48,278 nucleotides of DNA from Candidatus Sungiibacteriota bacterium (GCA_016186145.1 JACPMF010000007.1:85302-133579), one strand, 5' to 3'. Counted from the first letter of the stretch, positions 2,348-48,146 are shown. Notes: generated from the sequence alone by a model not told the origin. Program-made: numbers and translations.

Positions 2348-2654
2348 CCGCCGCGAGAATTTTCCATTACGGAGATTTTGGTCGCAAATGGTGAAAGCGG
2401 CGAAAAGGGAAACCCGAGCCGCAGCGTAAGGGCGAAAAGCGTTTAAATAGCTTTTCGCGGGCATTGCGAGGAAGCGAGCGAAGCGAGCTCCCGCAGCAGG
2501 ATGCCCGGGAACGGGTTCCCCTCGACGACGCGTGTCCAGGGTGTAGAACTGCGCGTGCCGCTTCGCGGCATGCTCGTTACACCCGTGCGGAAGCTATTCA
2601 AACGCTTCCGCACCCATTTGTCAAAATCGCAGTTCTGGAAAATTCTCGCGGCGG
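2348..2654. other. ~300-nt GC-rich structured intergenic element closed by a perfect 19-bp helix; contains two inverted copies of structured module 2
   Basis: CCGCCGCGAGAATTTTCCA (2348-2366) is the exact reverse complement of 2636-2654. Inside are many hairpins, and module-2 copies at 2430-2510 (+) and 2535-2603 (-). Confidence 0.45.
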
Positions 2655-3723: not shown

Positions 3724-3732
3724 TAAAACAAA

Positions 3733-5457
3733 ATGAGCACTGCCGCCGTTTATAAAGAATACATTGCTCTATTGGTGCTTGCCATATTCGCCTGCGGTCT
3801 TATCATTGCCCCGTTATCAGTTAAGGCGACGGTGCCGACCGCGGAAGTCGTTAATGTACCAATCCTGATAGGCAAGGCGGTTCTTCAACTTGCCGAGCTG
3901 GTATTTCAATCGGCGCAAGAATACGCCCTGGTTCTAAAAGAGTATGTTCTGGATCCGGCGGCAAAGCTTCTTGTTTCATTCATGATCCAAACCCTGACCC
4001 GGGCAGTCATCGGCTGGATCCAAAGCGGTGGAAACACAAATTTCATCTCGAATCTGCAAGCGGCAACAGCAAGGGTTGCGGATGAAGCCGCGGGTGAATT
4101 CCTTAATCAGCTTGCCGGCACAAACCTCTGCCAGCCATTCTCGTTCGACATCAAACTCATCTTCCAGATACCAACCCTGCGGGATAAGCTCACCTGCACC
4201 GCAACGGACATTTTTAGAAATCTGGAAACTTCGTATGAGAACTTCCTCAATAATTTTACCAACGGGGGGTGGATTGCATTCCAAACCGCAATGCTCCCCC
4301 AAAATAACTACATCGATGTTCTTATCAATACGTACGATGAAAAACTTCGCCGTGAATCACGGCAGGTTGCTATACTTGAAAGTCAATACCAAGCGGGGCA
4401 AGGATTTGTTGGTGTCAGAATAAAAAAAGAGCTTTGCGAAGACATCATTGACGACGACGGGGAACCCGCAGCAAGTTGCACTACGCAATACATAAATACA
4501 ACACCGGGAACTCTTGTTTCTGACCAGCTCAAAAAAACTTTCAGTTCCGGCTGGGACCAGGCGGTTGACGCCGACGAAATCGGGGAGGCAATTGATGCAA
4601 TTATTGTAGCACTCGTACAGCAGCTCATCTCTTCGGCACAAGCCGGTCTTGCATCCGGCGACGAAGAAAGCGGAATTTACGATCCCGGCTTTGGAACATC
4701 GGCGCCGCTGCCGCGGCCCTTACCGAACCTCTTTATACCAACAGGACCGGTGCCGACCGCTACAACCACCATCCTTGCCGGAGATACTGTCAGATTCCGC
4801 GGCACGATCCAAAATAACGGTGGGAGAACCGATGAGCTTTTCAACGCGCGTTTTGAAATCGATGTTAACGCCGACGCCTCCGTTGACGCGATCCTTTCCC
4901 CTGATACGCCGGTTGACGGCCTGCTCGACAACGGCTCCATTGACATAACTTCAGGACCATGGATAGCAACGGAAGGCGTCCACCGCATCATACTTTGCGC
5001 CGACCAGCCGATTTCGGTTGTTGCCGAATCCCTCGAAACCGACAACTGCAACGGCGGAAGCTCGGGAACCTTCGCCGTCGGCTCACGACCCGACCTCTTC
5101 ATCTCTCAAAACCCATCAATGTTTTCCGGCGTACCGGTATCCGGATCGAAAATCACATTCGGCGGCATCGTCGGAAACCAAGGTGGGAATACGGCAACTT
5201 CCACATTTGAAAATACATTCCAGATTGACTTCGACAACAATGGCAGTATAGACGTTCAACTCACCCCAAGCCCAACCATTGCAAACCTCACGCCCGGCAC
5301 AACTCAACAGGTACTTTCTAACCAGTGGACCGCCGTCGCCGGCACGCACCGCGTGATTCTCTGCGCGGATACTCCATTCGACACGATCAGAGAAACCAAC
5401 GAAGCGAACAACTGCAATCCCACAGGAACGGGAATATTTACGATAACGACCTTTTAG
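3733..5457 (+). CDS. Secreted/anchored protein with two C-terminal CARDB-like repeats
   Basis: N-terminal hydrophobic signal/anchor. Two ~110-aa repeats each end ...W(I/T)A..G.HR(I/V)ILCAD.P......E.NNCN. Confidence 0.6.
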   Translation: MSTAAVYKEYIALLVLAIFACGLIIAPLSVKATVPTAEVVNVPILIGKAVLQLAELVFQSAQEYALVLKEYVLDPAAKLLVSFMIQTLTRAVIGWIQSGGNTNFISNLQAATARVADEAAGEFLNQLAGTNLCQPFSFDIKLIFQIPTLRDKLTCTATDIFRNLETSYENFLNNFTNGGWIAFQTAMLPQNNYIDVLINTYDEKLRRESRQVAILESQYQAGQGFVGVRIKKELCEDIIDDDGEPAASCTTQYINTTPGTLVSDQLKKTFSSGWDQAVDADEIGEAIDAIIVALVQQLISSAQAGLASGDEESGIYDPGFGTSAPLPRPLPNLFIPTGPVPTATTTILAGDTVRFRGTIQNNGGRTDELFNARFEIDVNADASVDAILSPDTPVDGLLDNGSIDITSGPWIATEGVHRIILCADQPISVVAESLETDNCNGGSSGTFAVGSRPDLFISQNPSMFSGVPVSGSKITFGGIVGNQGGNTATSTFENTFQIDFDNNGSIDVQLTPSPTIANLTPGTTQQVLSNQWTAVAGTHRVILCADTPFDTIRETNEANNCNPTGTGIFTITTF

Positions 5458-9823: not shown

Positions 9824-10861
9824 ATGGCCATAAACAACTCAAGCAGCAACATAACCGAGGAAACAATCCTTACACGCTACGAGTCCCTGCCCGAAGACTT
9901 AAAGCAAGCTCTCATGGGTGTTGAGACCGCCGGAGAGCTCTATAAAATAGGTAAAAATGCAAACTTAAGCGTTGAAAAGATTGGCCGCCTCGCTGAAGAA
10001 GTCGGATTAATAATTTTAGGACTCACCCCTTCCCAAAACTTCATCTCGGACTTAAAACAAATGCTCGAGGTGCCCCAGGAAAAAGCCGAAGAGGTCGCAT
10101 CAGAGGTCAACACACGCATCTTTCTTCCGATACGCGAATCACTCAAGCGCCTGCATGGCGCTTCATGGAGCGAGGGCATCACAAAGCTCCCAGTCACAGC
10201 CGAAAGACCAAGAAGCGCTTTTGATGAAGGAAAAAAGGCGCCCGCTTTCTCATTGCCTCCCGCCTTTCAAAAAGAACCGGCGTCTCCGTCACAAGCAAAA
10301 CCGGAAATCAAAAAACCTGTGATGCCGCCGCCACTGGCAGCGCCAATTGAAAAGATTTCTTTACAACCGACAACCCCCTCAACCCCAAAAGAGCCCCTCA
10401 TTATTCAGCCAATGGGTGGCGCATCGGCAATAACAAGACCCGCTCCTGATCGCGGAGTATTTAAAAACGAAATAAGGCCGCCTTCTCTAATACCTGCGGA
10501 AAGAAAGCCGGTCCCCCCGCCCCCGCCAATAATCCAGCCACCCCAAGTTCGAGTCGCGGCCCCTGATACAAAATCTGAAATAAAAAAAATACAGACCCCA
10601 ACACCCCCACCACCGCCCCCGGTGCCGCCGAAAATTCCGATATTTGAAAAACCGGCATTACTAACTCCTCCGGAACCGTTAGGCCAACCCTCTTCCTTAA
10701 AAAGCATTGAACCTCGCGCGAAGGACCTGAAACCATCCCCTGTCCCTGCGGAAAGACCCTGGGGTGTTAGGGAAGACAAAGAAGTTAAACCGTCCGTTCA
10801 AATCCCCCCATCGACGCCTTCACAACCCGGGTTTGACCCATATAGAGAACCACTTGAATAG
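9824..10861 (+). CDS. Pro-rich protein of unknown function
   Basis: 345-aa ORF with a structured ~110-aa N-terminal domain followed by PPPPP-rich low complexity. TATAAT at 9772-9777 lies upstream. Confidence 0.55.
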   Translation: MAINNSSSNITEETILTRYESLPEDLKQALMGVETAGELYKIGKNANLSVEKIGRLAEEVGLIILGLTPSQNFISDLKQMLEVPQEKAEEVASEVNTRIFLPIRESLKRLHGASWSEGITKLPVTAERPRSAFDEGKKAPAFSLPPAFQKEPASPSQAKPEIKKPVMPPPLAAPIEKISLQPTTPSTPKEPLIIQPMGGASAITRPAPDRGVFKNEIRPPSLIPAERKPVPPPPPIIQPPQVRVAAPDTKSEIKKIQTPTPPPPPPVPPKIPIFEKPALLTPPEPLGQPSSLKSIEPRAKDLKPSPVPAERPWGVREDKEVKPSVQIPPSTPSQPGFDPYREPLE

Positions 10862-10943
10862 AAGCAGATTTACGCGGATGACAACGCGGAAAAAACGCGG
10901 ATCCGCATGAATCCGCGTAGCTATCCGTATTTATCCGCTTCTA
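10861..10943 (+). repeat. 83-nt intergenic repeat, copy 1 (4 GCGGAT-like + 4 ATCCGC-like units)
   Basis: Differs at only 3 of 83 positions from 11367-11449 by my alignment. Starts in the upstream stop codon and ends 4 nt before the next ATG. Confidence 0.9.
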
Positions 10944-10947
10944 AGGC

Positions 10948-11364
10948 ATGCGTCAATTCCAAGTTCCCCAATTTATAAACATCGAAGACAAAATTATCGG
11001 GCCGCTCACGCTAAAACAATTTCTCTATCTTGTCGGCGGAGGGGCTGCCGTCCTCCTCGCGTGGTTTGGTCTCAACACATTCTTTTTTGTTCTCGTTTCG
11101 GCGCCGACAACAGCCCTTTCTCTTGCGCTTGCTTTCTTAAAAATTAACGACCAAACATTTCCAACGGTCTTTATGAATAGTTTAAACTTCTACCTAAAAC
11201 CCCGGCTCTACTTGTGGAAACGGGCCGCCCCAGCAAGGACGGCCGGCATGCTTCCAAAAGAAGACGCGGAAAAACAAACAAAAATCAAACTTCCGACACT
11301 CACCGAGTCAAGACTAAATGACCTTTCCTGGAGCTTAGACATTAAGGAGAAACTTAACCGTTGA
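10948..11364 (+). CDS. PrgI/VirB3-like small membrane protein
   Basis: MRQFQVPQFINIEDKIIGPLTLKQFLYLVGGG... followed by two TM segments is the PrgI-family N-terminal pattern. Adjacent to VirB4. Confidence 0.6.
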   Translation: MRQFQVPQFINIEDKIIGPLTLKQFLYLVGGGAAVLLAWFGLNTFFFVLVSAPTTALSLALAFLKINDQTFPTVFMNSLNFYLKPRLYLWKRAAPARTAGMLPKEDAEKQTKIKLPTLTESRLNDLSWSLDIKEKLNR

Positions 11365-11366
11365 TA

Positions 11367-11449
11367 GAAGCGGATCTATGCGGATGACAACGCGGAAAAA
11401 ACGCGGATCCGCATGAATCCGCGTAGCTATCCGTATTTATCCGCTTCTA
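11367..11449 (+). repeat. 83-nt intergenic repeat, copy 2
   Basis: See 10861-10943. Begins 2 nt after the upstream stop codon (TGA 11362-11364) and ends 2 nt before the ATG at 11452. Confidence 0.9.
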
Positions 11450-11451
11450 AT

Positions 11452-12117
11452 ATGCAGCAGACCGAATCGCAAAAGGCCGCGAAGGCAAAGGCGGCACAGG
11501 ATTTCCTCGCAGTCGACTTTATCCGAGACGGCGTTATTTCCCTTAGAGGCACCCAGGGACTACGAATGGTCCTAATGGCGTCCTCTTTCAACTTTGCCCT
11601 CAAGTCCTCTGAAGAACAAGACGCGACCATCATGCAATACGAAAACTTTTTAAATTCTTTGGACTTTCCAATCCAGTTCGTAATCCACTCCAGAAGACTC
11701 AACATAACTCCATACCTTGAAACCCTCAAAGAGCGGGAAAAAGAAGAAACGAACGAGCTGTTAAAAATCCAGGTCGGCGAATACATCGAATTTGTGCGTT
11801 CTTTCGTCGAACTGACTAACATCGTCACAAAAACTTTTTATGTAATCGTGCCGTTTACACCGACAATCGCGGAGAAGGCGGGTGTTGCCTCGTTTTTACC
11901 GGCGTTTTTCAAAAACAAGAAGGACGCCGGCGGAACCGATAACGGAAATTCTTTCACAGAGCACAAAAACCAGCTTTTACAGCGAGCAGACGCGGTATCC
12001 GCCGGATTGAGACGGTTCGGCATACGAAGCGCTGCGCTGAATACAGAAGAACTCGTCGAGCTTTTCTACGGACTCTACAACCCCGCAGAGGCAGAGAGAC
12101 AGAAGCTTAAAGAATAA
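11452..12117 (+). CDS. VirB4 N-terminal-domain-like protein without an ATPase domain
   Basis: ATG at 11452 (the track start 11413 lies inside the repeat). FIRDGVISLRGTQGLRMVLMASSFNFALKSSEEQD...FLNSLDFPIQFVI resembles the N-terminal region of Gram-positive-type VirB4 proteins. No Walker motifs. Confidence 0.45.
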   Translation: MQQTESQKAAKAKAAQDFLAVDFIRDGVISLRGTQGLRMVLMASSFNFALKSSEEQDATIMQYENFLNSLDFPIQFVIHSRRLNITPYLETLKEREKEETNELLKIQVGEYIEFVRSFVELTNIVTKTFYVIVPFTPTIAEKAGVASFLPAFFKNKKDAGGTDNGNSFTEHKNQLLQRADAVSAGLRRFGIRSAALNTEELVELFYGLYNPAEAERQKLKE

Positions 12118-12120
12118 TCA

Positions 12121-12209
12121 ACGAATTACGAATCTTTTGCGAATCTACGAATACTCGTTGCTGTCGCGTGAAATATTATTCGTATATTCGTACTGGATTC
12201 GTAATTCGC
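12121..12209. repeat. Imperfect palindrome built from 4 (A/G)CGAAT + 4 ATTCG(T/C) units
   Basis: Left-arm units at 12121, 12128, 12139, 12147. Mirror units at 12178, 12186, 12197, 12204. CGAATTACGAATC (12122-12134) pairs perfectly with 12196-12208. Confidence 0.85.
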
Positions 12210-12227
12210 TGGTGGAGCGAAGCGGAT

Positions 12228-14042
12228 ATGGCCATTCTTGGTTTCGGAAAAAAACAAAGACAAACAGAAGAAATACTCCCGGTTTTTCCGGAAGAAATTT
12301 ATCGCGCGGCGGAAATAACGCTCAAAGACGTCATCGCGCCGTCAGCCCTTGAAATCAGTCCGAATTTTCTGCGTCTTGGAGAGCGTCTCGCGCGCACTCT
12401 TTTTGTATTTTCATATCCCCGGTTTCTGCACACGAACTGGTTCTCGCCGATCATTAATCTCGATAAAATCTTTGATATTTCTATCTTTATTCACCCGGTA
12501 GACACTGCGGTAATACTTCGCGAGCTAAGAAAGCAGGTGGCGCGGGTACAGTCGCAAATTTCCCTCCGCGAAGAAAAAGGCCTCGTTCGAGACCCGATGC
12601 TTGATACGGCGTATCGAGACCTTGAGGTGCTGCGCGACCGCCTCCAGCAGGCGCAGGAACGACTTTTTAACGTCGGCCTCTACATAACGGTCTACGGATC
12701 AAACGAACAAGAACTTGATAAGGCGGAAAACGAAATTCGGTCAATGATGGAATCGAAGCTCGTCTACATAAAACCCGCGCTCTTCCAACAAGAAGAGGGA
12801 TTCAATGCAACCCTTCCGTTAAACACCGACCATTTGCTTATCCATAATTACCTGAACTCGGGCCCGGTATCCTCAACTTTTCCGTTCGTCTCTTTCGATC
12901 TTACCTCCAACAAAGGCGTGCTCTACGGCATCAACCGGCACAACAACTCCTTAATTCTCTTTGACCGCTGGTCCCTCCCAAACGCAAACTCGGTCACCTT
13001 TGCCGTCTCGGGGGCGGGGAAATCATATGCAACAAAACTCGAAATTCTCCGCTCGCTCATGTTCGGCGGAGAAGTCATTGTCATCGACCCGGAACGCGAG
13101 TACAAGTATTTAACCGAGACCGTTGGGGGTGCTTACTTCAATATCTCACTCGCCTCGCCCCATCACATAAATCCGTTCGACCTCCCGCTCCCCCGCGAGG
13201 ATGAATCGCCGGCAGATGTCCTTCGCTCAAACATCGTAAACCTCATTGGGCTTTTCCGCATCATGCTCGGCGGACTCACGCCGACCGAGGACGCCATCCT
13301 CGACCGGGCAATTACCGAAACGTACGCGGCGAGAGACATCACCCCTGAATCGGATTTCACAAAAACAAGCACCCCCACCCTCTCCGACCTTGCCCTAGTC
13401 CTTGCAAACACCGAGGGCGGAGATGAACTTGCGGTGAAACTGAAAAAGTACACCGAAGGAACATGGGCCGGGTTCATAAACCAGCCAACCAACATTAATG
13501 TGCAAAACCGCCTTGTGGCGTTTTCGGTACGGGACATGGAAGAAGAACTCCGGCCCGTCGCCATGTATATCGTTCTCCATTACATTTGGAATATCGTCCG
13601 GTCAGAACTCAAACAGCGCCTGTTGGTGGTAGACGAAGCGTGGTGGCTTATGCGCCAAGAAGACGGCGCATCGTTCCTTTTCGGCATCGCAAAGCGGGCA
13701 CGGAAATATTATCTCGGCCTTGCCACCATTACCCAGGACGTAGCCGACTTTTTGGGTTCGCCCTATGGCCGCCCTATTGTTACAAACTCTTCAATGCAAC
13801 TCCTCCTCAAACAGTCTCCGGCGACGATAAAAACCGTAGTCGAAGCATTCAATCTTACCGAGGAAGAAAAATTTCTGCTCTTGGAAACAGAAGTCGGGGA
13901 GGGCATCTTTTTTGCCGGCTTAAAGCATGTCGCCATCAAGGTTATCGCCTCCTATACCGAGGACCAAATCATCACTACCGACCCCGCGCAGCTTATGGTT
14001 ATCAGAAAAGCAAAAGAAGAGTTTCAGAAGGCGGGACAATAA
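12228..14042 (+). CDS. virB4: VirB4/TrbE-family conjugation/T4SS ATPase
   Basis: ATG at 12228. Walker A is VSGAGKSYA and Walker B is LLVVDEAW, with a VirB4-like N-terminal domain. About 600 aa. Confidence 0.85.
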   Translation: MAILGFGKKQRQTEEILPVFPEEIYRAAEITLKDVIAPSALEISPNFLRLGERLARTLFVFSYPRFLHTNWFSPIINLDKIFDISIFIHPVDTAVILRELRKQVARVQSQISLREEKGLVRDPMLDTAYRDLEVLRDRLQQAQERLFNVGLYITVYGSNEQELDKAENEIRSMMESKLVYIKPALFQQEEGFNATLPLNTDHLLIHNYLNSGPVSSTFPFVSFDLTSNKGVLYGINRHNNSLILFDRWSLPNANSVTFAVSGAGKSYATKLEILRSLMFGGEVIVIDPEREYKYLTETVGGAYFNISLASPHHINPFDLPLPREDESPADVLRSNIVNLIGLFRIMLGGLTPTEDAILDRAITETYAARDITPESDFTKTSTPTLSDLALVLANTEGGDELAVKLKKYTEGTWAGFINQPTNINVQNRLVAFSVRDMEEELRPVAMYIVLHYIWNIVRSELKQRLLVVDEAWWLMRQEDGASFLFGIAKRARKYYLGLATITQDVADFLGSPYGRPIVTNSSMQLLLKQSPATIKTVVEAFNLTEEEKFLLLETEVGEGIFFAGLKHVAIKVIASYTEDQIITTDPAQLMVIRKAKEEFQKAGQ

Positions 14043-14211
14043 AAGGCTTTGTCCAAAATTTGGAGGCGGGCGAACAAATTTTGGTTACAAAACCTTTACC
14101 CTGTTAAATAATTTCGCCTTTGGCGAAATTGCCGCAGAGCGGCATTTAACAGGGTGCTGAATTTTATAGTTTCATTTACTCGCTTTGCTCGTAAATTCAA
14201 ATAAAATTCGC
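14040..14211 (+). repeat. Family-A structured intergenic cassette, copy A (sense to + strand genes)
   Basis: Starts at the virB4 stop codon. Long hairpin 14042-14097, then CCCTGTTAAAT (14099-14109)/ATTTAACAGGG (14144-14154) enclosing two hairpins, then the shared ~60-nt leader ending at ATG 14212. Confidence 0.85.
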
Positions 14212-14763
14212 ATGCCTGAAGCCGCAACACAAACAATCGAGGACGCGCCGGAAGCAAAACAGGTAGAAGAGGGCGAACAACAAGGAGAAAAGAACGCCGA
14301 CGCTAAGAGCGATTCAAAAATATCAACCGCGCAAGCCGGACTTATGATCGGCGTAGCCCTGCTTTTTGACGGGGCCCAGTTTGTAATCGGGGCGCTTGCC
14401 GGACTTACCGTATTTCTCCTCCCGCTCGGCATTGCGGTCGGATGGGTTGTTGATATTTGGGCATGGCTTACATTCTTTTTATGGCTGCATTCGCTTGGAT
14501 TGAGTATGATAAAGAAGGGTGGGGCTAGTGGAGGCGGTTTGGGGAAAGAGCCGTTTGTCATTATCGCGCTCGCGTTCGGTATTGAATTTATACCCATCAT
14601 CAACGCGCTCCCGGCCTGGACCGCAGCCATCGCAACATTGATTTTTAGACAGCGCACCGAAGCCATCCTTCGGACCGCGGGTGGAATAGAAAAAGCGCTG
14701 GAGCCAACATCCAAACTTAAACTCAAAAGTCTATCGTCCAAAACCGACAGCGAAAATGAATAA
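14212..14763 (+). CDS. Membrane protein (4 TM) with acidic N-terminus
   Basis: ATG at 14212 sits directly after the shared leader. The hydrophobic core is in operon orientation. The mirror ORF on the minus strand is rejected. Confidence 0.6.
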   Translation: MPEAATQTIEDAPEAKQVEEGEQQGEKNADAKSDSKISTAQAGLMIGVALLFDGAQFVIGALAGLTVFLLPLGIAVGWVVDIWAWLTFFLWLHSLGLSMIKKGGASGGGLGKEPFVIIALAFGIEFIPIINALPAWTAAIATLIFRQRTEAILRTAGGIEKALEPTSKLKLKSLSSKTDSENE

Positions 14764-15733
14764 ATCCATTTCACAATTTTTCGTTCTCATATTATTACTT
14801 GCCGCTCTTTCCCCGCACGCAGCACTCACCCAAACGCTTCAAAACCTGACCTTGGCGATCAACCCGCCCTTTCCAAAAGCGGAAGAGGAGGTACAGGCGA
14901 AGGCAATTCTTGTCGGAGCCGATCAAGACCTTTCGTCTTTTGAATGGTACAAAGACGGCAAGCAGGACAAATCAGCATCAGGAAAAGGCAAAAATGTTTT
15001 TATATTCAAAGTTGGAAACGGGCCAAGAACAATTATTGACGCCGTCGTCATGACCCCTGACGGGAACCGTCTGTCTGCAACGCGGGCAATCACCAGAGAA
15101 CGTCCGGTTATAATATGGTCGGCAAATACTTCGGTTCCGCTTTGGTACAAGGGCAAACCCCTACCAAGCCCCGGGTCAACCGTAACGATTATGGCGCTTC
15201 CCGGCGCCGGATTCGGAGAGTCCGCGTCGGAGCTCTTCTACTCATGGAACATCAACCTCGAACCGCATCCGGAAGTCTCCGGCATCGGAAAAAACAAATT
15301 CACGCTCAAAACATCGCTGGTCCCCGACGTCAGCCAGCAGATTATCGTCCGAATCTCAAACGCGAACCAGACAATAGCACAAGAAGCAACCCTTATCCTG
15401 CCGACCCGCAGTACAGAGCTTCTGGTATATAGACTTACCCCCGCCGGACTCACCGACTTCTCAAAAACAATATCCGAATTCGGTGGCACGGCTGGCGGGA
15501 TTTTTGACTTCATCGCCACCCCGTTCTATTTTCGCCAAGACCTCGCCTTTCCACCCGTCTTCGTATGGTCTGTCAGCGGACAGGCCTCTCCGAGCGGTGA
15601 TAAACCAAATATCTTAAGCATTAAAACCAACTCCGGAGAATCTTCCGAAAGCGCTGTCTCGATAAGCGCATCGGCCGGCAAAGGAATTGAGAAACAAGAG
15701 GCAGAATATTTATTTAGAGCGCGCTTCCGGTGA
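14756..15733 (+). CDS. Secreted hypothetical protein
   Basis: Signal-peptide-like N-terminus (FFVLILLLAALSPHAAL). Overlaps the upstream stop by 8 nt, consistent with translational coupling. Confidence 0.6.
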   Translation: MNKSISQFFVLILLLAALSPHAALTQTLQNLTLAINPPFPKAEEEVQAKAILVGADQDLSSFEWYKDGKQDKSASGKGKNVFIFKVGNGPRTIIDAVVMTPDGNRLSATRAITRERPVIIWSANTSVPLWYKGKPLPSPGSTVTIMALPGAGFGESASELFYSWNINLEPHPEVSGIGKNKFTLKTSLVPDVSQQIIVRISNANQTIAQEATLILPTRSTELLVYRLTPAGLTDFSKTISEFGGTAGGIFDFIATPFYFRQDLAFPPVFVWSVSGQASPSGDKPNILSIKTNSGESSESAVSISASAGKGIEKQEAEYLFRARFR

Positions 15734-15837
15734 AGCTGAATCATGAATAATGAATTAGAAATCAGAAATAAAAACTACTTTTCGCGTTCATCCGCATTCA
15801 TAATTCATTATTCATAATTCCTGATTCCCGATTTTAA

Positions 15838-16287
15838 ATGTCCAAAACGCCCATCATAACATTCTTTTTCATTGCAATAGCCATACTGCTTGGCGCCGAT
15901 TTCGTTTATGCCGTGACCGTCGAAATTGCCGGCCAAAACGAAGCGGTCCAACAACAGCTTGCCGCGGCAACCGCAAGCGACTATTTGAGCAATCTCTATG
16001 TATGGATGCTCGGCATTGTCGGTCTTGCAAGTTTGTTCGCCCTTATTTACGGCGGCGTTCTTTATATTTTTTCCGGAGCAATTGAGTCAACCTCTGAAGC
16101 GAAACGATGGATGACAAACGCCTTGTGGGGCCTGCTTCTTGCCGCCACATCATGGCTTATTCTCAATACCATCAATCCGGAACTTGTAAAAAAATTCGGT
16201 GTTGGAGAGATCATTTATAAATACTGCATGAAAGCAGCAAAAACCGCGGAAGATAGGGCGGTCTGTGAAAAAACAAGAGAGCAATAA
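15838..16287 (+). CDS. T4SS pilin-like (TrbC/VirB2-like) two-TM protein
   Basis: Signal/TM segment, then two hydrophobic helices (...LGIVGLASLFALIYGGVLYIF...ALWGLLLAATSWLILNTINPEL). Size and context fit a pilin. Confidence 0.55.
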   Translation: MSKTPIITFFFIAIAILLGADFVYAVTVEIAGQNEAVQQQLAAATASDYLSNLYVWMLGIVGLASLFALIYGGVLYIFSGAIESTSEAKRWMTNALWGLLLAATSWLILNTINPELVKKFGVGEIIYKYCMKAAKTAEDRAVCEKTREQ

Positions 16288-16302
16288 AAAAATATCGACA
16301 AC

Positions 16303-17508
16303 ATGGACACTAAAACCAGCAGAAGAAAAATCTTCATAATCGTCATCGTTACCACGGTCATTGCCGGAGTAGGTTTTTTCTTTTTTGGGTTATTGCTACC
16401 AACAGCACCGACAGCGGACGGCGAACCAACTTCCTTTTTCGGGCGTCTCCCTATTATTGGCGGGAGGGTTGGCTCGAAAGTAACCGAGGCCCCTCCGGCC
16501 ACACAACAACCTGTCCCGGGGGCAACACCCGGTGCGGCCGAACAGCGACGCCTGATTCAAATCACCGATGAGCCAATAATTGGCCCGGCGATCAGCGAGA
16601 GCGGAGAAAAAATTTTCTATTACCGTAAACGAGATGGACACCTTGTCAGCAACAACTTCACCGGAGGACAAGAAGAGACAATTTCCAACCTGACTATTTT
16701 AAACATCCTTGAGGTTTTGTGGTCGCCGGACAGAAAAAATGCAGTCGTAACCTACCAAGACGGCGAGATAATAAAGAGGTTTATAACAGAAGCGACCTCA
16801 ACCCCGAAAGTAACGTTCCTGCCGCAAGAAAGCGAGAACCCCGCGTGGTCGCCTGACAACAACACGATTTTTTGGATGACCCGGCAAGGAGAAAATCGCA
16901 CCCTTACGAGCGCCTCCCGAAACGGTCAAAATCCGCGTGGCCGCGGGTTTACAACACCCATTCCCGACCTCCAACCCATAGCGCTTACCCCAGACATAGT
17001 TGCCCTCATTCCAAAAACCGCTTCTTTTTACGAAACGCCGCTTTTTGTGCTCAACCTCAAAACCCTCGCCCAAAACACCGCGCTCTTTACCTTCGGCCTG
17101 ACCGCAATTAACGATACTGACCCAAAAAGCCAGCTTGTTCTCTACAACTCAACGAACCGTCTTGGCGCCATGCAAGACATTCATGCTGCGGACCTTCAAT
17201 CCGGGAAAGATACAAGCTGGCCGATAAAGACCTTGCCGGAAAAATGCGTTTTCGCAAAAGACGGCACAGCGCTCTTTTGCGCAGTACCCAAAGAAATACC
17301 CGCACGCGGCATGCCGGAAGTCTGGTATAAAGGACAAGTCTCTTTTTCGGACGCATTCTTCCGCATCGACTTGAACACAAGCAAAGCGGAACAGATTTTG
17401 AGCGAAAGTGGCTATGACGCGGTATATCTCGCAACATCGGCCGATAAGAAGTTTTTGTTCTTTACGGATAAAAAAACAAGCTTTTTATACAGCCTGTTGC
17501 TAGACTAA
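16303..17508 (+). CDS. Anchored periplasmic/extracellular beta-propeller-like protein (TolB-like WSPD repeats)
   Basis: N-terminal TM segment. Repeated ...WSPD... motifs (VLWSPDRKN, PAWSPDNNT). Confidence 0.5.
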   Translation: MDTKTSRRKIFIIVIVTTVIAGVGFFFFGLLLPTAPTADGEPTSFFGRLPIIGGRVGSKVTEAPPATQQPVPGATPGAAEQRRLIQITDEPIIGPAISESGEKIFYYRKRDGHLVSNNFTGGQEETISNLTILNILEVLWSPDRKNAVVTYQDGEIIKRFITEATSTPKVTFLPQESENPAWSPDNNTIFWMTRQGENRTLTSASRNGQNPRGRGFTTPIPDLQPIALTPDIVALIPKTASFYETPLFVLNLKTLAQNTALFTFGLTAINDTDPKSQLVLYNSTNRLGAMQDIHAADLQSGKDTSWPIKTLPEKCVFAKDGTALFCAVPKEIPARGMPEVWYKGQVSFSDAFFRIDLNTSKAEQILSESGYDAVYLATSADKKFLFFTDKKTSFLYSLLLD

Positions 17509-20064: not shown

Positions 20065-21435
20065 ATGGATTACCGCGAACTTTGGAAAGCAGCGCTTGGG
20101 GAAATAGAACTTGCGATCCCAAGACCGAGTTTTATTACATGGTTCAAAGAAACGGCTGTTTTTGAGATTTCTGATGGAATCGTAACAATATCGGTCCCAA
20201 ACGGTTTTGCAAAGGAGTGGTTGCAATCGAAATACAACAAATTCATTATCCGTGCCTTGAGAAATGTGGCGGACGATAGTGTCCGAGATGTTGCTTTTGT
20301 GGTTGGAAGGGCCTCGGTAGACGGAACCGGTGTAAAAACCAAGGAGCGTCAGAAAGTAAGGCTTATCCCAACCGTAAGCGATGAAATGCAGCTAAAAGAT
20401 CTGCATATTGACCCGGAAACCGGCCTTAACCCGCGCTATACATTTGAAAACTTTATCGTCGGGTCTTTCAACGAACTCGCGCATGGTGCTGCGCGCGCCG
20501 TTGTCCAAAACCTCGGTTCGGCCTATAACCCCCTTTTTATCTTCGGGGGTGTTGGTTTGGGAAAAACCCACCTCATACAGGCAATAGGAAACGAGATTGC
20601 CGGGAGCCACGGCGCAAAAGTCAGATATGTTACATCCGAAAAATATATGGGGGAGATCGTCGAGGCGCTTTCAAACCAGACAATCAATCAGCTGAAGGAA
20701 CGCTACCGGAAAGTCGACCTTCTCATTATGGACGACATCCAATTCATCGCAAGAACAGAGAAAATGCAGGAAGAATTCTTCCATACATTCAACGTCCTAT
20801 ACCAGCAAAATAAACAAATTGTAATATCCTCCGACCGTCCGCCGTCCGCAATCCCGACGTTAGAGAACCGCCTCCGCTCGCGTTTTGAAGGAGGGTGTCT
20901 TATTGACGTTGGGGAGCCGGATCTTGAAACACGCCTGACCATACTAAAAGCAAAAGCCGGTGAAAAAGGGATTGCCCTTCCGGAAGACGTATTTCTTCAC
21001 ATTGCGTCGGTCATCAAAAATAACATCCGGGAGCTTGAAGGGGCCCTTACCCGTCTCGCGCTCAGCGCCCGGACATCTTCCGCAACACCAACCCTCGAAG
21101 AGACAAAGAAAATACTCGAACAAGTAGCCCAAGCGCCAAAAAAATTCACTTCTCCTAAAAAAGTAATCAAGGTTGTCGCCGACTTCTACGAGATCATGGA
21201 AAAAGATCTCGTCAACCCAAGTAGAAGAAAAGAAATCGTGAAACCGCGCCAAATTGCGATGTATATTCTCCGTGAGGAGCTAAAGTGCTCATACCCTTTC
21301 ATTGGTGAAAAACTCGGAAAAAAAGACCACACGACAGCAATCCACGCGTGCAAAAAAATAGACGGGGAACTAAAAACAGACCTCGATTTACAAAACTCGA
21401 TAAAACTAATCAAAGAAAAAATCTACTCCGTCTAA
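20065..21435 (+). CDS. dnaA: Chromosomal replication initiator DnaA
   Basis: AGGAGG SD. Walker A is GGVGLGKTHL, with AAA+ domain III and a C-terminal DNA-binding helix (...KDHTTAIHACKKI). Confidence 0.95.
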   Translation: MDYRELWKAALGEIELAIPRPSFITWFKETAVFEISDGIVTISVPNGFAKEWLQSKYNKFIIRALRNVADDSVRDVAFVVGRASVDGTGVKTKERQKVRLIPTVSDEMQLKDLHIDPETGLNPRYTFENFIVGSFNELAHGAARAVVQNLGSAYNPLFIFGGVGLGKTHLIQAIGNEIAGSHGAKVRYVTSEKYMGEIVEALSNQTINQLKERYRKVDLLIMDDIQFIARTEKMQEEFFHTFNVLYQQNKQIVISSDRPPSAIPTLENRLRSRFEGGCLIDVGEPDLETRLTILKAKAGEKGIALPEDVFLHIASVIKNNIRELEGALTRLALSARTSSATPTLEETKKILEQVAQAPKKFTSPKKVIKVVADFYEIMEKDLVNPSRRKEIVKPRQIAMYILREELKCSYPFIGEKLGKKDHTTAIHACKKIDGELKTDLDLQNSIKLIKEKIYSV

Positions 21436-21697: not shown

Positions 21698-22795
21698 ATG
21701 AAAATAATCTGTACGAGAAACAACCTTCGCAATACCTTCCAGCTCGTAGAGCGTTTTACCGGAAAGAGCCTTACCCTTCCTATTCTTGGTAGTATATTTT
21801 TTGAGGCCGACGAGAAAAAAATACGGTGCGTGGCGACAAACCTTGAGGTTGGTATTGAGGTTGTTATGCCCGGGAAGGTTATCAGAGGCGGATCCGTTGC
21901 CATACCCGGAAGAATCGCGAACACTCTTGTTCAGTCCTTGGACGAGGAGAATGTTTTATTAGAAGAAAAAGACGGAGCGATCACTATAAAAACGGACTCT
22001 TCAAGTTTTACTCTTCAGGGGTTGTCTCCAAAGGATTTCCCGCCGCTTCCAAAGATCAAAAGGGAGCACGAATTCAGTATTCCAGCTAACATTCTTAAGA
22101 AAGGGCTTGTCCAGGTTCTTCCCGCCGTGTCTGTTTCTGACTTTAAGCCGGAGCTTTCTGGGGTTTATTTGAAGCGTGATGCGCGGGCGGTTACACTCGC
22201 CGCCACCGACTCTTTTCGTCTTGCTGAAAAACTTTTTCAGTTGCAAACACCCGGCGATGCTGTTTCTTGCATAATCCCTTGGAAGACATGCCAGGAGTTA
22301 TCAAGGATACTTCCGGAGGACGGAGAGGAATATGTTACCGTTCGCCAAGGAGAGAACCAGGTTATGTTTGATTTTTCAGAGGTTCATATGGTGTCGCGTC
22401 TTATCGACGGAACATACCCTGACTATGTGTCGATCATCCCTAAAGATTTTTCTTCTCATCTCGCTGTTCCGAGGGAAGATCTTGTAAAAAGGGTGAGAGC
22501 GGCAAGCGTTCTCTCGTCGAAACTGAACGATATCGTGTTGAGCTCGTCCGAGGACGAGGTGTTTATTGAAACCGCGAACTCTGAGTTAGGAAAGAGCCGT
22601 ATTCGGCTTTTGACCAAGGGAAGAGGAAAGGAAACAAAAGTTTCGTTCAACTTTCGTTACCTTTCAGACGGGCTTGAGGCAATAGACGGGGAAGAAGCGC
22701 TTATTTCGTTGAATGGCGACTCGTCACCGGCGCTCGTTTCCAGTTCCCAGGACCAGTCCTTCAGGTATATCCTTATGCCGATCCGGAGCGTCTGA
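21698..22795 (+). CDS. dnaN: DNA polymerase III beta sliding clamp
   Basis: 365 aa, immediately after dnaA, with a three-domain clamp-like pattern (...RLIDGTYPDY...). Confidence 0.9.
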   Translation: MKIICTRNNLRNTFQLVERFTGKSLTLPILGSIFFEADEKKIRCVATNLEVGIEVVMPGKVIRGGSVAIPGRIANTLVQSLDEENVLLEEKDGAITIKTDSSSFTLQGLSPKDFPPLPKIKREHEFSIPANILKKGLVQVLPAVSVSDFKPELSGVYLKRDARAVTLAATDSFRLAEKLFQLQTPGDAVSCIIPWKTCQELSRILPEDGEEYVTVRQGENQVMFDFSEVHMVSRLIDGTYPDYVSIIPKDFSSHLAVPREDLVKRVRAASVLSSKLNDIVLSSSEDEVFIETANSELGKSRIRLLTKGRGKETKVSFNFRYLSDGLEAIDGEEALISLNGDSSPALVSSSQDQSFRYILMPIRSV

Positions 22796-38632: not shown

Positions 38633-38780
38633 AGCCGAAGGTGGGAATCCTCTTCCTCTGAAATTTTGCGCGCCCCTCGATATAACTCGGGACAGGCAAA
38701 ATTTCTCCCCCAGAGCCCGGGTTTCCAAAATCGTAAAGCAGTTTACGATTTTGGAATACCCTTCGATTCCCATCTTCACC
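38633..38780. ncRNA. Family-B structured element, copy 1 (three-way junction; tRNA-3'-end-like terminal inverted repeats)
   Basis: P1 is TGGGAATC (38642-38649)/GATTCCCA (38765-38772). There is a 15-bp hairpin TTCCAAAATCGTAAA/TTTACGATTTTGGAA and a 10-bp stem GAAATTTTGC/GCAAAATTTC. About 60 nt are identical to 48016-48137. Confidence 0.5.
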
Positions 38781-38829: not shown

Positions 38830-39063
38830 AGCCGAAGATGGGAATCGAACCCACATTTCTACTTTACGAAAGTAATGTCCCGATTTTGTTCAAACTTTTG
38901 AAGCCAGGGGTGGGAGTCGAACCCACAACCTCTGCTTTACGAAAGCATTGCTCTGCCATTGAGCTACCCTGGCTGCAAAAGTTTGAACAAAATCGAGGAT
39001 CCTCGATTCGCCAACCGCGCTCCGCGCGGGCGAATCGGGACTCTACCATTGAACTACTTCGGC
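38830..39063 (-). tRNA. Interrupted tRNA-Thr(CGU)-like gene: 23-nt 5' part and 48-nt 3' part separated by a 163-nt insertion that contains another tRNA
   Basis: The 5' part 39063-39041 is GCCGAAGUAGUUCAAUGGUAGAG. The 3' part 38877-38830 is CAUUACUUUCGUAAAGUAGAAAUGUGGGUUCGAUUCCCAUCUUCGGCU. Joined, they give a 71-nt cloverleaf. Confidence 0.65.
38902..38973 (-). tRNA. tRNA-Thr (anticodon CGU), intact, no encoded CCA
   Basis: GCCAGGG UA GCUC AAUGGCA GAGC A AUGCU UUCGUAA AGCAG AGGUU GUGGG UUCGACU CCCAC CCCUGGC U. All four arms pair (one A/G mismatch at 27:43). Confidence 0.92.
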
Positions 39064-45112: not shown

Positions 45113-45300
45113 CTTAGAAAAACAAAAGGCATTATTGAACGAACGCCAGCCAGTTTATATAGCTAGCACCATTTTTCAATAAAGCGCAATATTGACTTTG
45201 CAGCATTTGTATTGTGTTTCAAAACAAACCCTTGCAGGAATTTCGTTATTATGTTAGTTAACAATAATAAGGGTAGCCTTAACGGAAGAAAGGAGAAATC

Positions 45301-45432
45301 ATGAATGACAGCACTGTTTTGATTGGATTGTTTGTTCTTTTATTGATGGCCGTCCTTTTAGGTGTTTTGCAGAGGTTTAGAAAGGCCATTATTAACTATT
45401 TTGACTTGTTTTCGGAGCGCCGAAAGCAATAA
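45301..45432 (+). CDS. 43-aa single-TM peptide (below the ORF-track cutoff)
   Basis: GAAAGGAGAAATC then ATG. Product is MNDSTVLIGLFVLLLMAVLLGVLQRFRKAIINYFDLFSERRKQ. A terminator lies 25 nt downstream. Confidence 0.45.
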   Translation: MNDSTVLIGLFVLLLMAVLLGVLQRFRKAIINYFDLFSERRKQ

Positions 45433-45456
45433 AATCAAAAAATTTTAGATCGGTCT

Positions 45457-45483
45457 GGTTGTCTGTGCGACAACCCTTTTTTT
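45457..45483 (+). terminator. Rho-independent terminator
   Basis: GGTTGTC-TGTGC-GACAACC followed by CTTTTTTTT. Confidence 0.7.
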
Positions 45484-45542
45484 AAAAGGACGGTTCGATT
45501 TACGATGAATATAAATGGGCACATCTGGACTCGAACCAGCGT

Positions 45543-45615
45543 TCCCGGGCGTAGAACTGCGCCGCTTTCGGCGTGCTCGTTATGCCCGCTCGAAGCAAAG
45601 ACATTTGCTTCTCGC
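45543..45615 (-). repeat. Structured module 2, copy b
   Basis: GCGAG-[GAAGCAAA UGUC UUUGCUUC]-GAGCGGGCAUAACGAGCA-[CGCCG AAA GCGGCG]-CAGUUCUACGCCCGGGA. Confidence 0.7.
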
Positions 45616-45642
45616 CCTCTGCAATGCCTGCCCCGTTACAAA

Positions 45643-45828
45643 TGGGCGTAGTAGGGATCGAACCTACGACCTTTCGCATGCTTGCCCGCCCAAATTTCTG
45701 AACAATGGACGGTGCAGGATTCGAACCTGCGGCCCCTGCAATGTGAATACAGTGCTCTACCGCTGAGCTAACCGTCCAGAAATTTAGGCGGGTGAAAAGC
45801 GAACGCTCTGCCACTGAGCCATACGCCC
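45643..45828 (-). tRNA. Split tRNA with anticodon loop UUUUCAC (UUC, Glu-type): 37-nt + 35-nt halves separated by a 114-nt insertion carrying tRNA-Val
   Basis: Halves are 45828-45792 and 45677-45643. Joined they read GGGCGUA UG GCUC AGUGGCA GAGC G UUCGC UUUUCAC GCGAA AGGUC GUAGG UUCGAUC CCUAC UACGCCC A. Every stem is Watson-Crick. Confidence 0.7.
45706..45777 (-). tRNA. tRNA-Val (anticodon CAC), intact, no encoded CCA
   Basis: GGACGGU UA GCUC AGCGGUA GAGC A CUGUA UUCACAU UGCAG GGGCC GCAGG UUCGAAU CCUGC ACCGUCC A. Confidence 0.93.
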
Positions 45829-45933
45829 ATATCCATTTGTAACGGGGTGAAAGTCCCGACGGCTCCGCCGTCGCGGATCCTCGATTTTGCAGCTCCGACG
45901 TCAAGCTGGAGGCAAAATCGGGACAGCGCTCTA

Positions 45934-46015
45934 TCCCGGGCATGGTACTGCGCTGTCCGACTAAAGTCAGACTGCTCGTAATGCCCGCGAGAATCCTATT
46001 TAAACGGATTCTCGC
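45934..46015 (-). repeat. Structured module 2, copy a
   Basis: GCGAG-extended hairpin GAGAAUCC GUUUAAAUA GGAUUCUC-GCGGGCAUUACGAGCA-[GUCUGAC UUUA GUCGGAC]-AGCGCAGUACCAUGCCCGGGA. Confidence 0.7.
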
Positions 46016-46056
46016 CCAACTGAGCTATGTGCCCTTAACAACTAGAAAGCTAACAT

Positions 46057-46704
46057 CTAAATCCCCAGTTTATTGATGATTTTTTCGTGGGGAGAGTCCA
46101 GAACATCCCGCACAAAGCGATCATTCATGTCGAGGCGGTAGCGGAACTCCGGCGTTGTCATCACCGAGTAATTGAGTTCTTTGCCGGTATCCGCCCGGAG
46201 TTTCTTGAGAAAAGAGTTGATACGGTCTTTTTTCAGTTTGTCTCCAACAAGCATGATGTCCGCCAAGGAGGAATCGCTTTTTATAAAAACGCCGGAAAGG
46301 AGCGCAACTTTTATATCGCCGAGAGAACGAATTCTTTCCGTGAGCCCGCCTCCTACAGAAGGGGCGGCGCGGGATACGAGATTTTTAAGCTCCGGATACA
46401 AGACGAACTCTTTATTTGCAAAAAATACCCGTTCACGCACCGTTTTTAGTTTTGGCTTTACGGTTTTTTTTCCTCGTCTTGTTTTTCTGGGCAGTTCAAT
46501 TGTTTGTTTAGCAATTCTTGTGCCGACAAGGCCTATTTTGAGCAGTTTTTTGATTTCTTTTTGGAAGCGTTGCTTGTTTATCTGAGCGCTTGCCACAGCT
46601 TTTTCAATGCTAAATTCGGCACCCGGGTTCATAAGAAAAAGCTTCAGGGCGCTTATTTTTGACCGAGATTCAAAAAGTTGTTCAAGCACTTTGCCAAGCT
46701 GCAT
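46057..46704 (-). CDS. Hypothetical protein with N-terminal winged-helix-like region
   Basis: 215-aa ORF. The N-terminal ~70 aa is HTH-like. No firm family. Confidence 0.5.
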   Translation of the reverse strand: MQLGKVLEQLFESRSKISALKLFLMNPGAEFSIEKAVASAQINKQRFQKEIKKLLKIGLVGTRIAKQTIELPRKTRRGKKTVKPKLKTVRERVFFANKEFVLYPELKNLVSRAAPSVGGGLTERIRSLGDIKVALLSGVFIKSDSSLADIMLVGDKLKKDRINSFLKKLRADTGKELNYSVMTTPEFRYRLDMNDRFVRDVLDSPHEKIINKLGI

Positions 46705-48003: not shown

Positions 48004-48146
48004 GTGAGCGGGTAAGGGGAATCCTCTTCCTCCGAAATTTTGCGCGTGCCTCCGGCACAGGCAAAGTTTCTCCTCCAGAGCCCGGGTTTCCAAAATCGTA
48101 AAGCAGTTTACGATTTTGGAATACCCTTCGATTCCCCCATTATCAC
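48004..48146. ncRNA. Family-B structured element, copy 2
   Basis: P1 is GGGGAATC (48016-48023)/GATTCCCC (48130-48137). Same 15-bp hairpin as copy 1. The P3 tip is replaced by GTGCC-TCC-GGCAC. Terminator-like hairpins flank it at 47973-47996 and 48161-48189. Confidence 0.5.

Follow-up and report, generated by a model that had tools for sequence, protein, structure and literature searches.

The window analyzed here is a stretch of 48,278 nucleotides (nt) from Candidatus Sungiibacteriota bacterium (GCA_016186145.1, JACPMF010000007.1:85302-133579), a groundwater bacterium of the Candidate Phyla Radiation (CPR). On its minus strand, at 45516-46034, an apparently working tRNA-Val gene is enclosed by two broken, older tRNA-Val genes, one inside the other. 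The 519 nt from 46034 to 45516 resolve into 15 consecutive parts that concatenate exactly. They comprise the outer shell, the middle shell and the inner tRNA, two cassettes whose arms flank the middle and inner genes, and two kinds of structured repeat, modules 1 and 2. Related genomes and contigs used for comparison are referred to by handles beginning with L.

The outer shell (Val allele D) opens with its 5' acceptor strand and runs to G18G19 of the D-loop (GGGCACAUAGCUCAGUUGG, 46016-46034). Its acceptor strand, GGGCACA, is perfectly complementary (7/7 pairs) to UGUGCCC at 45517-45523, as stated in an earlier note made from this DNA alone. Immediately after GG lies module 2 copy A (45934-46015), an 82-nt two-hairpin repeat that scores 69.9 bits (E 2e-16) with our covariance model R1. 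The shell resumes with the 3' strand of the D-stem, G26 and the first four nucleotides of the anticodon stem (UAGAGCGCUGU, 45923-45933, placed by tiling). It is broken again between positions 30 and 31 by module 1 (45855-45922, tiling), a Y-shaped element of 68 nt reading CCCGAUUUUGC...GCAAAAUCGAGGAUC...CGGG, of which related copies lie at 38998-39039 and in L093. Only A31 and the loop nucleotides C32 U33 follow (45852-45854), as recognized by homology with other Val(CAC) shells, before cassette 1 enters with its 5' end UUCAC, its 5' arm CCCGUUACAAAUGG and AUAU (45829-45851). This arm belongs to a 15-bp perfect inverted repeat and recurs in L092.

The middle shell (Val allele C) continues the series with its 5' part through U33 (45797-45828), followed by cassette 2, with the same 5' end UUCAC and the 5' arm CCGCCUAAAUUUCU (45778-45796), again half of an inverted repeat and of a type that carries tRNA-Met in L089. 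At the center is the intact tRNA-Val(CAC), allele A (45706-45777), with no encoded CCA. The remaining parts mirror the first. They are the 3' arm and end of cassette 2 (UUGUUCAGAAAUUUGGGCGGGCAAG, 45681-45705, inverted repeat and tiling); the 3' part of the middle shell, CAU GCGAA AGGUC GUAGG UUCGAUC CCUAC UACGCCC A (45643-45680, tiling); and the 3' arm and end of cassette 1 (UUUGUAACGGGGCAGG, 45627-45642, inverted repeat and tiling), an arm that also uses the CCA of the middle shell's 3' end. The outer shell then supplies C36 A37 U38, the 3' strand UGCAG of its anticodon stem and AGG of its variable loop (45616-45626), to which an insert-free homologous 3' half is known in L100. Module 2 copy B (45543-45615; 73 nt, R1 63.6 bits, E 1e-14) occupies the variable loop (AGG^AC, where ^ marks a junction), at the same site as in L082 and L090. 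The end of that loop, a T arm with a G49.A65 mismatch, the 3' acceptor strand and A73 complete the nest (45516-45542, tiling). An open reading frame (ORF) of 147 amino acids (aa) passes through the nest on the same strand (45500-45943) and is almost certainly spurious; L004/L005 carry a gene-caller annotation of a 160-aa ORF located downstream of their plain tRNA-Val.

All sequence segments quoted in the earlier note are present where it placed them. ARAGORN and Rfam agree with it in calling the inner tRNA (69.2 bits, Rfam tRNA), the only tRNA that either program called at the nest. The check it proposed, ARAGORN with introns allowed (0-400 nt), called no shell. Its helices needed revision: the one enclosing the middle tRNA, drawn with 13 bp, is a perfect 15-bp helix (45631-45645 / 45833-45847), while the one enclosing the inner tRNA, drawn with 15 bp, spans 19 nt and is 89% complementary (45685-45703 / 45774-45792). 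The 519-nt strand folds far better than its shuffles (z = -9.75, 100 shuffles).

The assembly was compared with independent data. Starting at 46086, three Logan assemblies from other runs follow the window with 0 mismatches as far as 45719, 45903 and 45876, so that independent support covers 46086-45719, the 3' third of the nest (45718-45516) lying outside that span. Because three independent assemblies match exactly, misassembly is very unlikely for 46086-45719. It could be argued that the nest is a chimera of several tRNA-Val genes joined at repeats, given that the Logan contigs break inside the locus and that module 2 is repeated. However, the agreement of the three assemblies takes in the outer 5' part, module 2 copy A, module 1, the arm and the 5' half of the middle shell and reaches 59 nt into the inner tRNA, and nests homologous to that of the window were found in the unrelated datasets L006, L092 and L100. 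An artefact on this scale is barely credible, and the Russian-doll anatomy is real.

The orthologous locus, bounded by the same two flanking genes, was read through in eight related genomes. Exactly one intact tRNA-Val(CAC) is present in 8/8, and the number of shells varies. A single plain gene with no shell is found in L004/L005, L101 and L103. In L006, shell A (GGACGGU...) encloses an intact allele B (GGGCAGU...), while in L092 shell B encloses an intact allele C (GGGCGCA...). L100 has an intact allele C, the 3' arm and just the 3' half of a D-type shell, and in L105/L106 an intact allele A is preceded by an eroded remnant in which UUUUCAC is preserved. The nesting order in the window is D around C around A. 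The comparison with relatives that had been suggested earlier therefore recovered the same nested architecture in related Sungbacteria-like genomes.

Alleles can be followed between genomes by sequence identity. The intact C alleles of L092 and L100 are identical (100%), and the middle shell of the window is 96% identical to both; likewise, the shell of L092 is 96% identical to the intact B of L006. The inner tRNA of the window shares 93% identity with the intact A of L105 and 81% with shell A of L006. Between allele classes identity is 67-82%, and within the window host and cargo share 69-75%. Alleles that form the working gene of some genomes are hence found as interrupted shells in others, in differing nesting order. 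Because these alleles are intact inner genes elsewhere, homology identifies both shells of the window as former tRNA-Val(CAC) genes. The inner tRNA-Val(CAC), allele A, is best explained as the only working gene of the locus.

Cassettes join their hosts in a recurrent manner. Five hosts, four of them Val(CAC) and one Met(CAU), have the junction N32 U33 ^ UUCAC-CC...arm...tRNA...arm...GG-CARG ^ N36 A37 N38. It reads UUUA^UUCAC...CAGG^C in L087, which has a Val(UAC)-type host, and ...CAC-CCCG...GGG-CAAG^U in L097, bringing the hosts with the UUCAC-CC...GG-CARG type in place of CA to seven. Alignment of the intact and interrupted forms of alleles B and C places UUCAC...CARG where the intact loop has CA. 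No target duplication was found at the cassette junctions; CA is replaced instead. The shared junctions and the comparison of B and C together assign UUCAC...CARG to the insert. The UUC anticodon that the earlier note had read in the middle shell is an artefact of the insert's own end. In two Thr(UGU) hosts (L095, L098), inserts with other ends sit in a clean cut between positions 35 and 36. Three explanations were weighed and rejected, since none predicts both junctions: duplication of the target site, a shared CA core of the kind used in site-specific or bridge-type recombination, and core sites resembling attC. With regard to integron attC sites (RYYYAAC ... GTTRRRY), GUUAGGU/ACCUAAC does occur in the arms of L006 but in the opposite order, and other arms lack the motif.

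Excisions on paper bear on whether the shells could be read as interrupted tRNAs. A set of 143 single deletions of the middle shell was scored; the sole tRNA product of 72 nt reads UUC, calls of Val(cac) come from products of 76-80 nt, and no Val(CAC) of canonical length is among them. The 72-nt product has a Val-type body (A73, GCUCAGUGGCAGAGC), different from the genuine tRNA-Glu(UUC) of L084, a module-2-bearing contig, which has the usual Glu body. For the outer shell, the four excisions set out in the earlier note do yield a 73-nt product that ARAGORN calls tRNA-Val(cac), although this is obtained only with a U.U pair in a stem. The boundary of module 1 used there is ambiguous by one base. 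The alternative, CUGU^CCCGA...CGGG^A (45922-45855), gives a stem, CUGUA/UGCAG, identical to that of the inner tRNA-Val.

It was also proposed that the locus encodes nested introns or split tRNAs, the shell halves being ligated or held together by helices after RNase P and Z release the inner tRNA, and then functioning in translation. Stem pairs are indeed well kept (21/21 in the middle shell, 20/21 in the outer), the changes in shells mostly preserve wobble pairing, and the flanking helices abut the junctions. A 3-bp helix (UUU/AAG; CUU/AGG in the outer shell) can be drawn between CA(C) and CAU bulges, and one-sided changes keep it paired. Nonetheless, the motif cut by EndA-type endonucleases, a bulge-helix-bulge, requires 4 bp with 3-nt bulges, while the cassette junctions allow just 3 bp with a U.C mismatch and unequal bulges, from which the cuts would be asymmetric; at the junctions of modules 1 and 2 no such motif was found. 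A single excision leaves a loop of 9 nt or, alternatively, UUC on a body of Val type with A73, and in neither shell does excision return a 7-nt anticodon loop with a coherent identity, given the U.U pair of the outer product. Rfam at E <= 10 over 45200-46400 returned only the inner tRNA, so that neither a group I core nor another known ribozyme is at hand, as had been surmised. Furthermore, split tRNAs of the Nanoarchaeum type have no intact isoacceptor gene, whereas an intact tRNA with the same anticodon lies inside every shell. In L071, L086, L095 and L100 only halves are left, and module 2 occurs outside genes in both orientations. We consider functional introns or split tRNAs very improbable, and no single excision restores a canonical-length Val(CAC) in the middle shell as they would require. 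It is the alternative named in the earlier note, serial invasion by small elements, that these data support, with the addition that the invaders bring a replacement tRNA with the same anticodon.

Comparison with known intervening sequences leads in the same direction. Archaea (Thermoproteales, Nanoarchaeum, Caldivirga) have multi-intron and split tRNA genes, with bulge-helix-bulge introns that transpose between tRNAs (PMC10714607, citing Fujishima 2009, 2010; PMC4390854). The nest resembles these in having several inserts in one tRNA gene, at sites in the D-loop, between positions 30 and 31, and in the anticodon and variable loops, in its complementary junction flanks, and in that its inserts behave as mobile units common to different tRNAs. 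It differs in that the host is a bacterium, the 3-4-3 bulge-helix-bulge is absent and excision does not restore the anticodon loop; moreover, the insert is a whole replacement tRNA and the hosts decay. Group I introns of bacterial tRNAs share with the nest an intervening sequence in the anticodon loop, but here there is no ribozyme core and the host tRNA is not restored.

There is direct comparative evidence that cassettes move between host genes, as indicated by the distribution of one of them. The cassette composed of arms CCCCGUUACAAAUGG/CCAUUUGUAACGGGG and allele C is found in host B (L092) and in host D (the window and L100), whose T arms and acceptor stems are unrelated. Since the same arms and the same allele occupy two different host genes, the cassettes appear to be mobile. 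Arm families are also common to different cargo: arms of the AAAUUUCU type carry Val-A and Met, and those of the CCCCGUUA type carry Val-C, Val-B, Val(UAC), Val(GAC) and Thr(UGU).

Nested structures could in principle arise without mobile cassettes, if template switching or slippage driven by hairpins created nested and inverted partial duplications in situ. Inverted partial tRNA copies do lie beside the nests. Antisense copies of the T arm and acceptor strand are located just downstream of shells (38762-38777 against 38834-38849, 16/16; 45492-45507 against 45522-45537), and L086 has an antisense copy of the D-arm beside its half-shell (~660-690). These copies form long hairpins with the shell, and may trace hairpin-driven rearrangement or compete with the shell cloverleaf. 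In addition, host and cargo are nearly identical in L098. In the window, however, host and cargo are as divergent as given above, the nesting order varies (A around B, B around C, D around C around A), and a cassette with identical arms lies in two unrelated hosts. On these three grounds in-situ duplication is disfavored and considered unlikely.

A second nest, not flagged in the earlier note, surrounds the tRNA-Thr(CGU) gene at 38830-39063 on the minus strand (ARAGORN, tiling). This is the only tRNA gene of the window besides tRNA-Val, and hence both are nested. Positions 25 and 26 of the Thr shell (39063-39040 and 38876-38830) are separated by the module-1-like element mentioned above (39039-38998) and a cassette with 21-bp arms (38997-38974 / 38901-38877), the cargo of which is an intact tRNA-Thr(CGU) (38902-38973). 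After excision, ARAGORN calls the shell as tRNA-Thr(cgt); its anticodon loop is intact and 21/21 stem pairs are kept (4 G.U, no mismatch). In both L100 and L105, the Thr ortholog is a plain gene similar to the shell.

Nests or half-nests were also identified for several other tRNAs. Apart from Val(CAC), they concern Val(GAC) in L082/L090, L097 and L071; Val(UAC) in L087; Thr(UGU) in L095 and L098; Met(CAU) in L089; Asn(GUU) in L086; and Lys(CUU) in L097. Host and cargo have the same anticodon in every nest whose host anticodon is legible, at least 10 in all (Val CAC, Val GAC, Thr UGU, Thr CGU, Met CAU, Asn GUU, Lys CUU), and the innermost gene is always intact. The shells represent stages of decay. 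Some are complete, some retain only a 5' half (L071, L086, L095) or only a 3' half (L100), and others have eroded stems (L087, L098, L082), as exemplified by the eroded 3' half of L098 and by L087, where 3/5 anticodon-stem pairs are left.

Shells might alternatively be kept for a non-decoding RNA role, either as a scaffold that aids processing or protects the precursor of the inner tRNA, or as carriers of the promoter and leader. The pairing maintained through G.U pairs, as in the Thr shell, is in line with this, as are the C/A>U/G changes in D-stems (three in L006, two in L092) and the folding of the locus. Moreover, the 5' half survives in 3/3 half-shells found through module 2. Against these stand L100, which has lost the 5' half and the 5' arm and yet keeps an intact inner gene 3 nt after an upstream stop codon, and the plain genes of L004, L101 and L103, which need no shell. 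A wobble-only pattern may also result from strand-biased deamination. A scan for the sigma-70 consensus upstream of the locus found no promoter, though such a scan is little informative for this phylum. Retention of the shells for such a role is thought improbable.

On the basis of these comparisons, we interpret the locus as one working gene in the remains of two earlier tRNA-Val(CAC) genes, produced through serial invasion by hairpin cassettes and replacement of the resident gene, and assign this interpretation a probability of about 0.65. A cassette would consist of a complete tRNA gene with complementary arms of 14-21 nt and the ends 5'-UUCAC-CC...GG-CARG-3'. Each layer would record the insertion of a cassette into the anticodon loop of the Val(CAC) gene then resident; replacement of the CA dinucleotide would destroy that gene, while the cassette supplied a working copy. 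In the window, gene D would have been invaded by cassette C and this in turn by cassette A. As tRNA genes are presumably single-copy in these small genomes, only insertions that decode the codons of the destroyed gene would survive, which would account for the anticodon shared by host and cargo. The same-anticodon rule would thus be enforced by selection rather than targeting. Dead shells would remain in the transcript as leader and trailer and accumulate further small repeats with structure, namely module 2 in the D-loop and variable loop and module 1 in the stem of the anticodon arm, before eventually being lost by deletion.

Insertion probably acts on DNA in the form of folded single strands, through an enzyme encoded elsewhere. 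This is suggested by the loop targets, the nesting of elements in the tips of each other's hairpins (for example, directly after ...ACAAAUGG), the lack of duplication and the constancy of strand in module 2, each copy of which keeps its motif on its own strand. The inner tRNA would be released by RNase P, for which rnpA is present in the window, trimmed at its 3' end and completed by CCA addition, which is expected given that no CCA is encoded.

While the invasion and replacement model accounts for the anatomy, several points weigh against it. The sample is biased, as most of the additional nests were retrieved by means of module 2. Pfam searches of 40 ORFs of the window, 16 of them without a family, detected no transposase (including the HUH/Y1 and REP-associated RAYT types), recombinase, reverse transcriptase, EndA or RtcB, the window being a small part of the genome. 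To our knowledge, the insertion chemistry, with no target duplication, CA replaced and an extra UU, matches no known mechanism. Young shells (the middle shell of the window, the Thr shell, L006 and L092) have all 21 stem pairs and those of their changes that can be placed preserve wobble pairing; this could reflect either continued constraint on the RNA or a transcription-linked C>U and A>G bias. Finally, the count of Val(CAC) and Thr(CGU) genes refers to the window, 48 kb of the genome.

Modules 1 and 2, listed in the earlier note as insertions in the third gene, are dispersed repeats and not specific to this locus. The core motif of module 2 occurs five times in the window at <=2 mismatches (0.83 expected), and R1 finds exactly four copies there as well as 23 further matches (E < 1e-5) in related contigs. 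No R1 match was found in L004, L005, L100, L101, L103 or L105, which have a plain locus or just eroded shell remnants. An alignment of 22 copies defines two hairpins with a conserved internal loop, ACGAGCA/GCGCAGU. Pairing is found in 92.6% of cells, compared with 77.8% in shuffles and 30-47% in slid controls, and the covariation score of 0.393 (0.160 in shuffles) was reached by 0/500 shuffles. At pair 34/77, to take one case, 12 copies have CG and 9 have UA; pair 37/72 is evenly divided, with 11 copies each of AU and UA.

Module 2 has distinctive insertion preferences. GG precedes 21/22 copies, and none of the 22 junctions shows a target duplication. Within tRNAs, the module lies after G18G19 or in the variable loop and always in sense orientation; 12/12 such copies are in shells with an intact tRNA of the same anticodon inside or adjacent, and no copy was seen in an intact tRNA. 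Intergenic copies occur in both orientations. A pattern scan of public genomes returned ~72 chance matches (unrelated, mostly GC-rich bacteria) and 4 true loci, and the pattern was tightened for metagenomes; the further copies found by these scans come from CPR and groundwater contigs only. The module was not found in the viral contigs of IMG/VR, with no sign of a phage vector. Rfam, at gathering and permissive thresholds, reported only tRNAs at the Val locus, the intergenic composite at 2.3-2.7 kb and seven related loci.

These properties can be compared with those of known mobile elements. Like repetitive extragenic palindromic (REP) and REPIN sequences, repeats derived from the insertion sequences IS200/IS605, Rickettsia palindromic elements and miniature inverted-repeat transposable elements (MITEs), modules 1 and 2 are short, dispersed and hairpin-forming, with covarying stems. 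Their insertion leaves no target duplication, takes place beside a short motif (GG) in either orientation and can put one module within another, and copies C and D of module 2 form an inverted doublet as in REPINs. Dispersal in both orientations, in intergenic and genic positions, places modules 1 and 2 among MITE- or REP-like repeats. Classical MITEs were rejected on account of the missing target-site duplication; the cassettes have long complementary arms but replace CA. A conserved loop within a covarying hairpin and the GG may recall IS200/IS605 and REP/RAYT systems, but the layout is unlike IS608 or REP ends, the modules have no Rfam match, and the two-hairpin unit with its ACGAGCA/GCGCAGU loop sets them apart.

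Phages, integrative and conjugative elements and genomic islands that integrate in tRNA genes measure kilobases, encode an integrase and duplicate only the 3' part of the gene as direct repeats. The cassettes are alike in that they enter tRNA genes and bring tRNA sequence that preserves the viability of the cell. In contrast, they measure ~100-220 nt, contain no ORF and place a complete tRNA between both halves of the host; we accordingly do not class them as tRNA-targeting integrative elements. Non-autonomous structured repeats and damage-compensating tRNA-targeting elements are the nearest kinds, and there is a substantial chance that tRNA cassettes form a separate category. Full-text literature searches (tRNA introns in CPR and other bacteria, nested or disrupted tRNA genes, tRNA-targeting elements) retrieved no description of such cassettes.

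If correct, the model implies that tRNA genes of reduced genomes are turned over by invasion and replacement and not by inheritance alone, with Val(CAC) alleles being resident, invader or wreck depending on lineage. It would provide a minimal case of persistence in which an element takes the place of an essential gene, and would account for odd tRNA-like debris in CPR genomes and for assembly breaks at tRNA loci. Such debris should be taken with caution as evidence of introns or anticodon changes. There are also at least two unannotated, strongly covarying families of structured repeats, and their partner enzyme could represent a new activity that inserts DNA or RNA under the direction of hairpins.

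A more tentative extension, which we regard as possible but somewhat doubtful, is that tRNA cassettes with flanking hairpins constitute a selfish element of a new class, ~100 nt long, that spreads by addictive gene replacement and is mobilized as folded single-stranded DNA by an enzyme recognizing the ACGAGCA/GCGCAGU loop. Were this so, a cassette of ~100 nt with a tRNA as its only gene would spread between genomes, destroy the resident gene with the same anticodon and become indispensable; the loop in module 2 and in long intergenic hairpins would be the recognition site of the mobilizing enzyme.

Other structured repeats were noted in the window and its relatives. Between divergent genes at 2340-2660, an outer helix of 34 nt (88% complementary) encloses module 2 copies C (2432-2510, plus strand, R1 67.5 bits) and D (2535-2613, minus strand, opposite to C, R1 89.5 bits), the second hairpin of D being identical to that of the copy in L054. 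This intergenic region is highly palindromic, folding equally well on both strands, and the long arms of the composite contain the internal-loop motif of the second hairpin of module 2 (AUUACGGAG / CGCAGUUCU). L083, L088 and L094 share this conserved arrangement, for which Rfam has no match. An identical, perfect 15-bp hairpin (UUCCAAAAUCGUAAA....UUUACGAUUUUGGAA) is present at 38723-38756 and 48088-48121, a small dispersed palindromic repeat whose core, CAAAAUCG, resembles module 1 and arm sequences. Another recurrent module, the third, measures ~150 nt (GUCCCGCAACUUCCGCGAC...GGGAGCGnGAAGUUGGCGAGGAUCCC...GUUCGGGAUGGUGCGGUGA; no Rfam match); in L006 (~2817-2960) it is nested in hairpin 1 of a module 2 copy, and in L094 (~615-800) it is intergenic. 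In L054, a weak module 2 match (4363-4450, minus strand, 32.7 bits) lies immediately upstream of tRNA-Ala(CGC) (4235-4305) and may be an eroded 5' half-shell. L103, in which the Val locus is plain, encodes a large serine recombinase (Resolvase/Recombinase/Zn_ribbon_recom, 3253-4372) adjoining tRNA-Leu(GAG), the only recombinase seen near any of these tRNA loci.

A 215-aa protein encoded next to the nest has its best named relatives in Candidatus Sungbacteria/Sungiibacteriota (Parcubacteria, CPR), and the window contains dnaA and dnaN beside rnpA and yidC, RNase Y, PNPase, a sigma factor and a type-IV-secretion-like cluster. The segment 18174-22795, with yidC, rnpA, dnaA (20065-21435) and dnaN (21698-22795) and a change in the sign of GC skew near 20-22 kb, is probably the replication origin region. 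The secretion-like cluster (9824-17508) includes a PrgI-family protein (10948-11364), a VirB4/TraG-like ATPase (12168-14042) and a type IV secretion system pilin (15838-16287). Around the PrgI gene lie three copies of a 32-nt repeat (10912-10943, 11365-11396 and 11418-11449), partly inverted.

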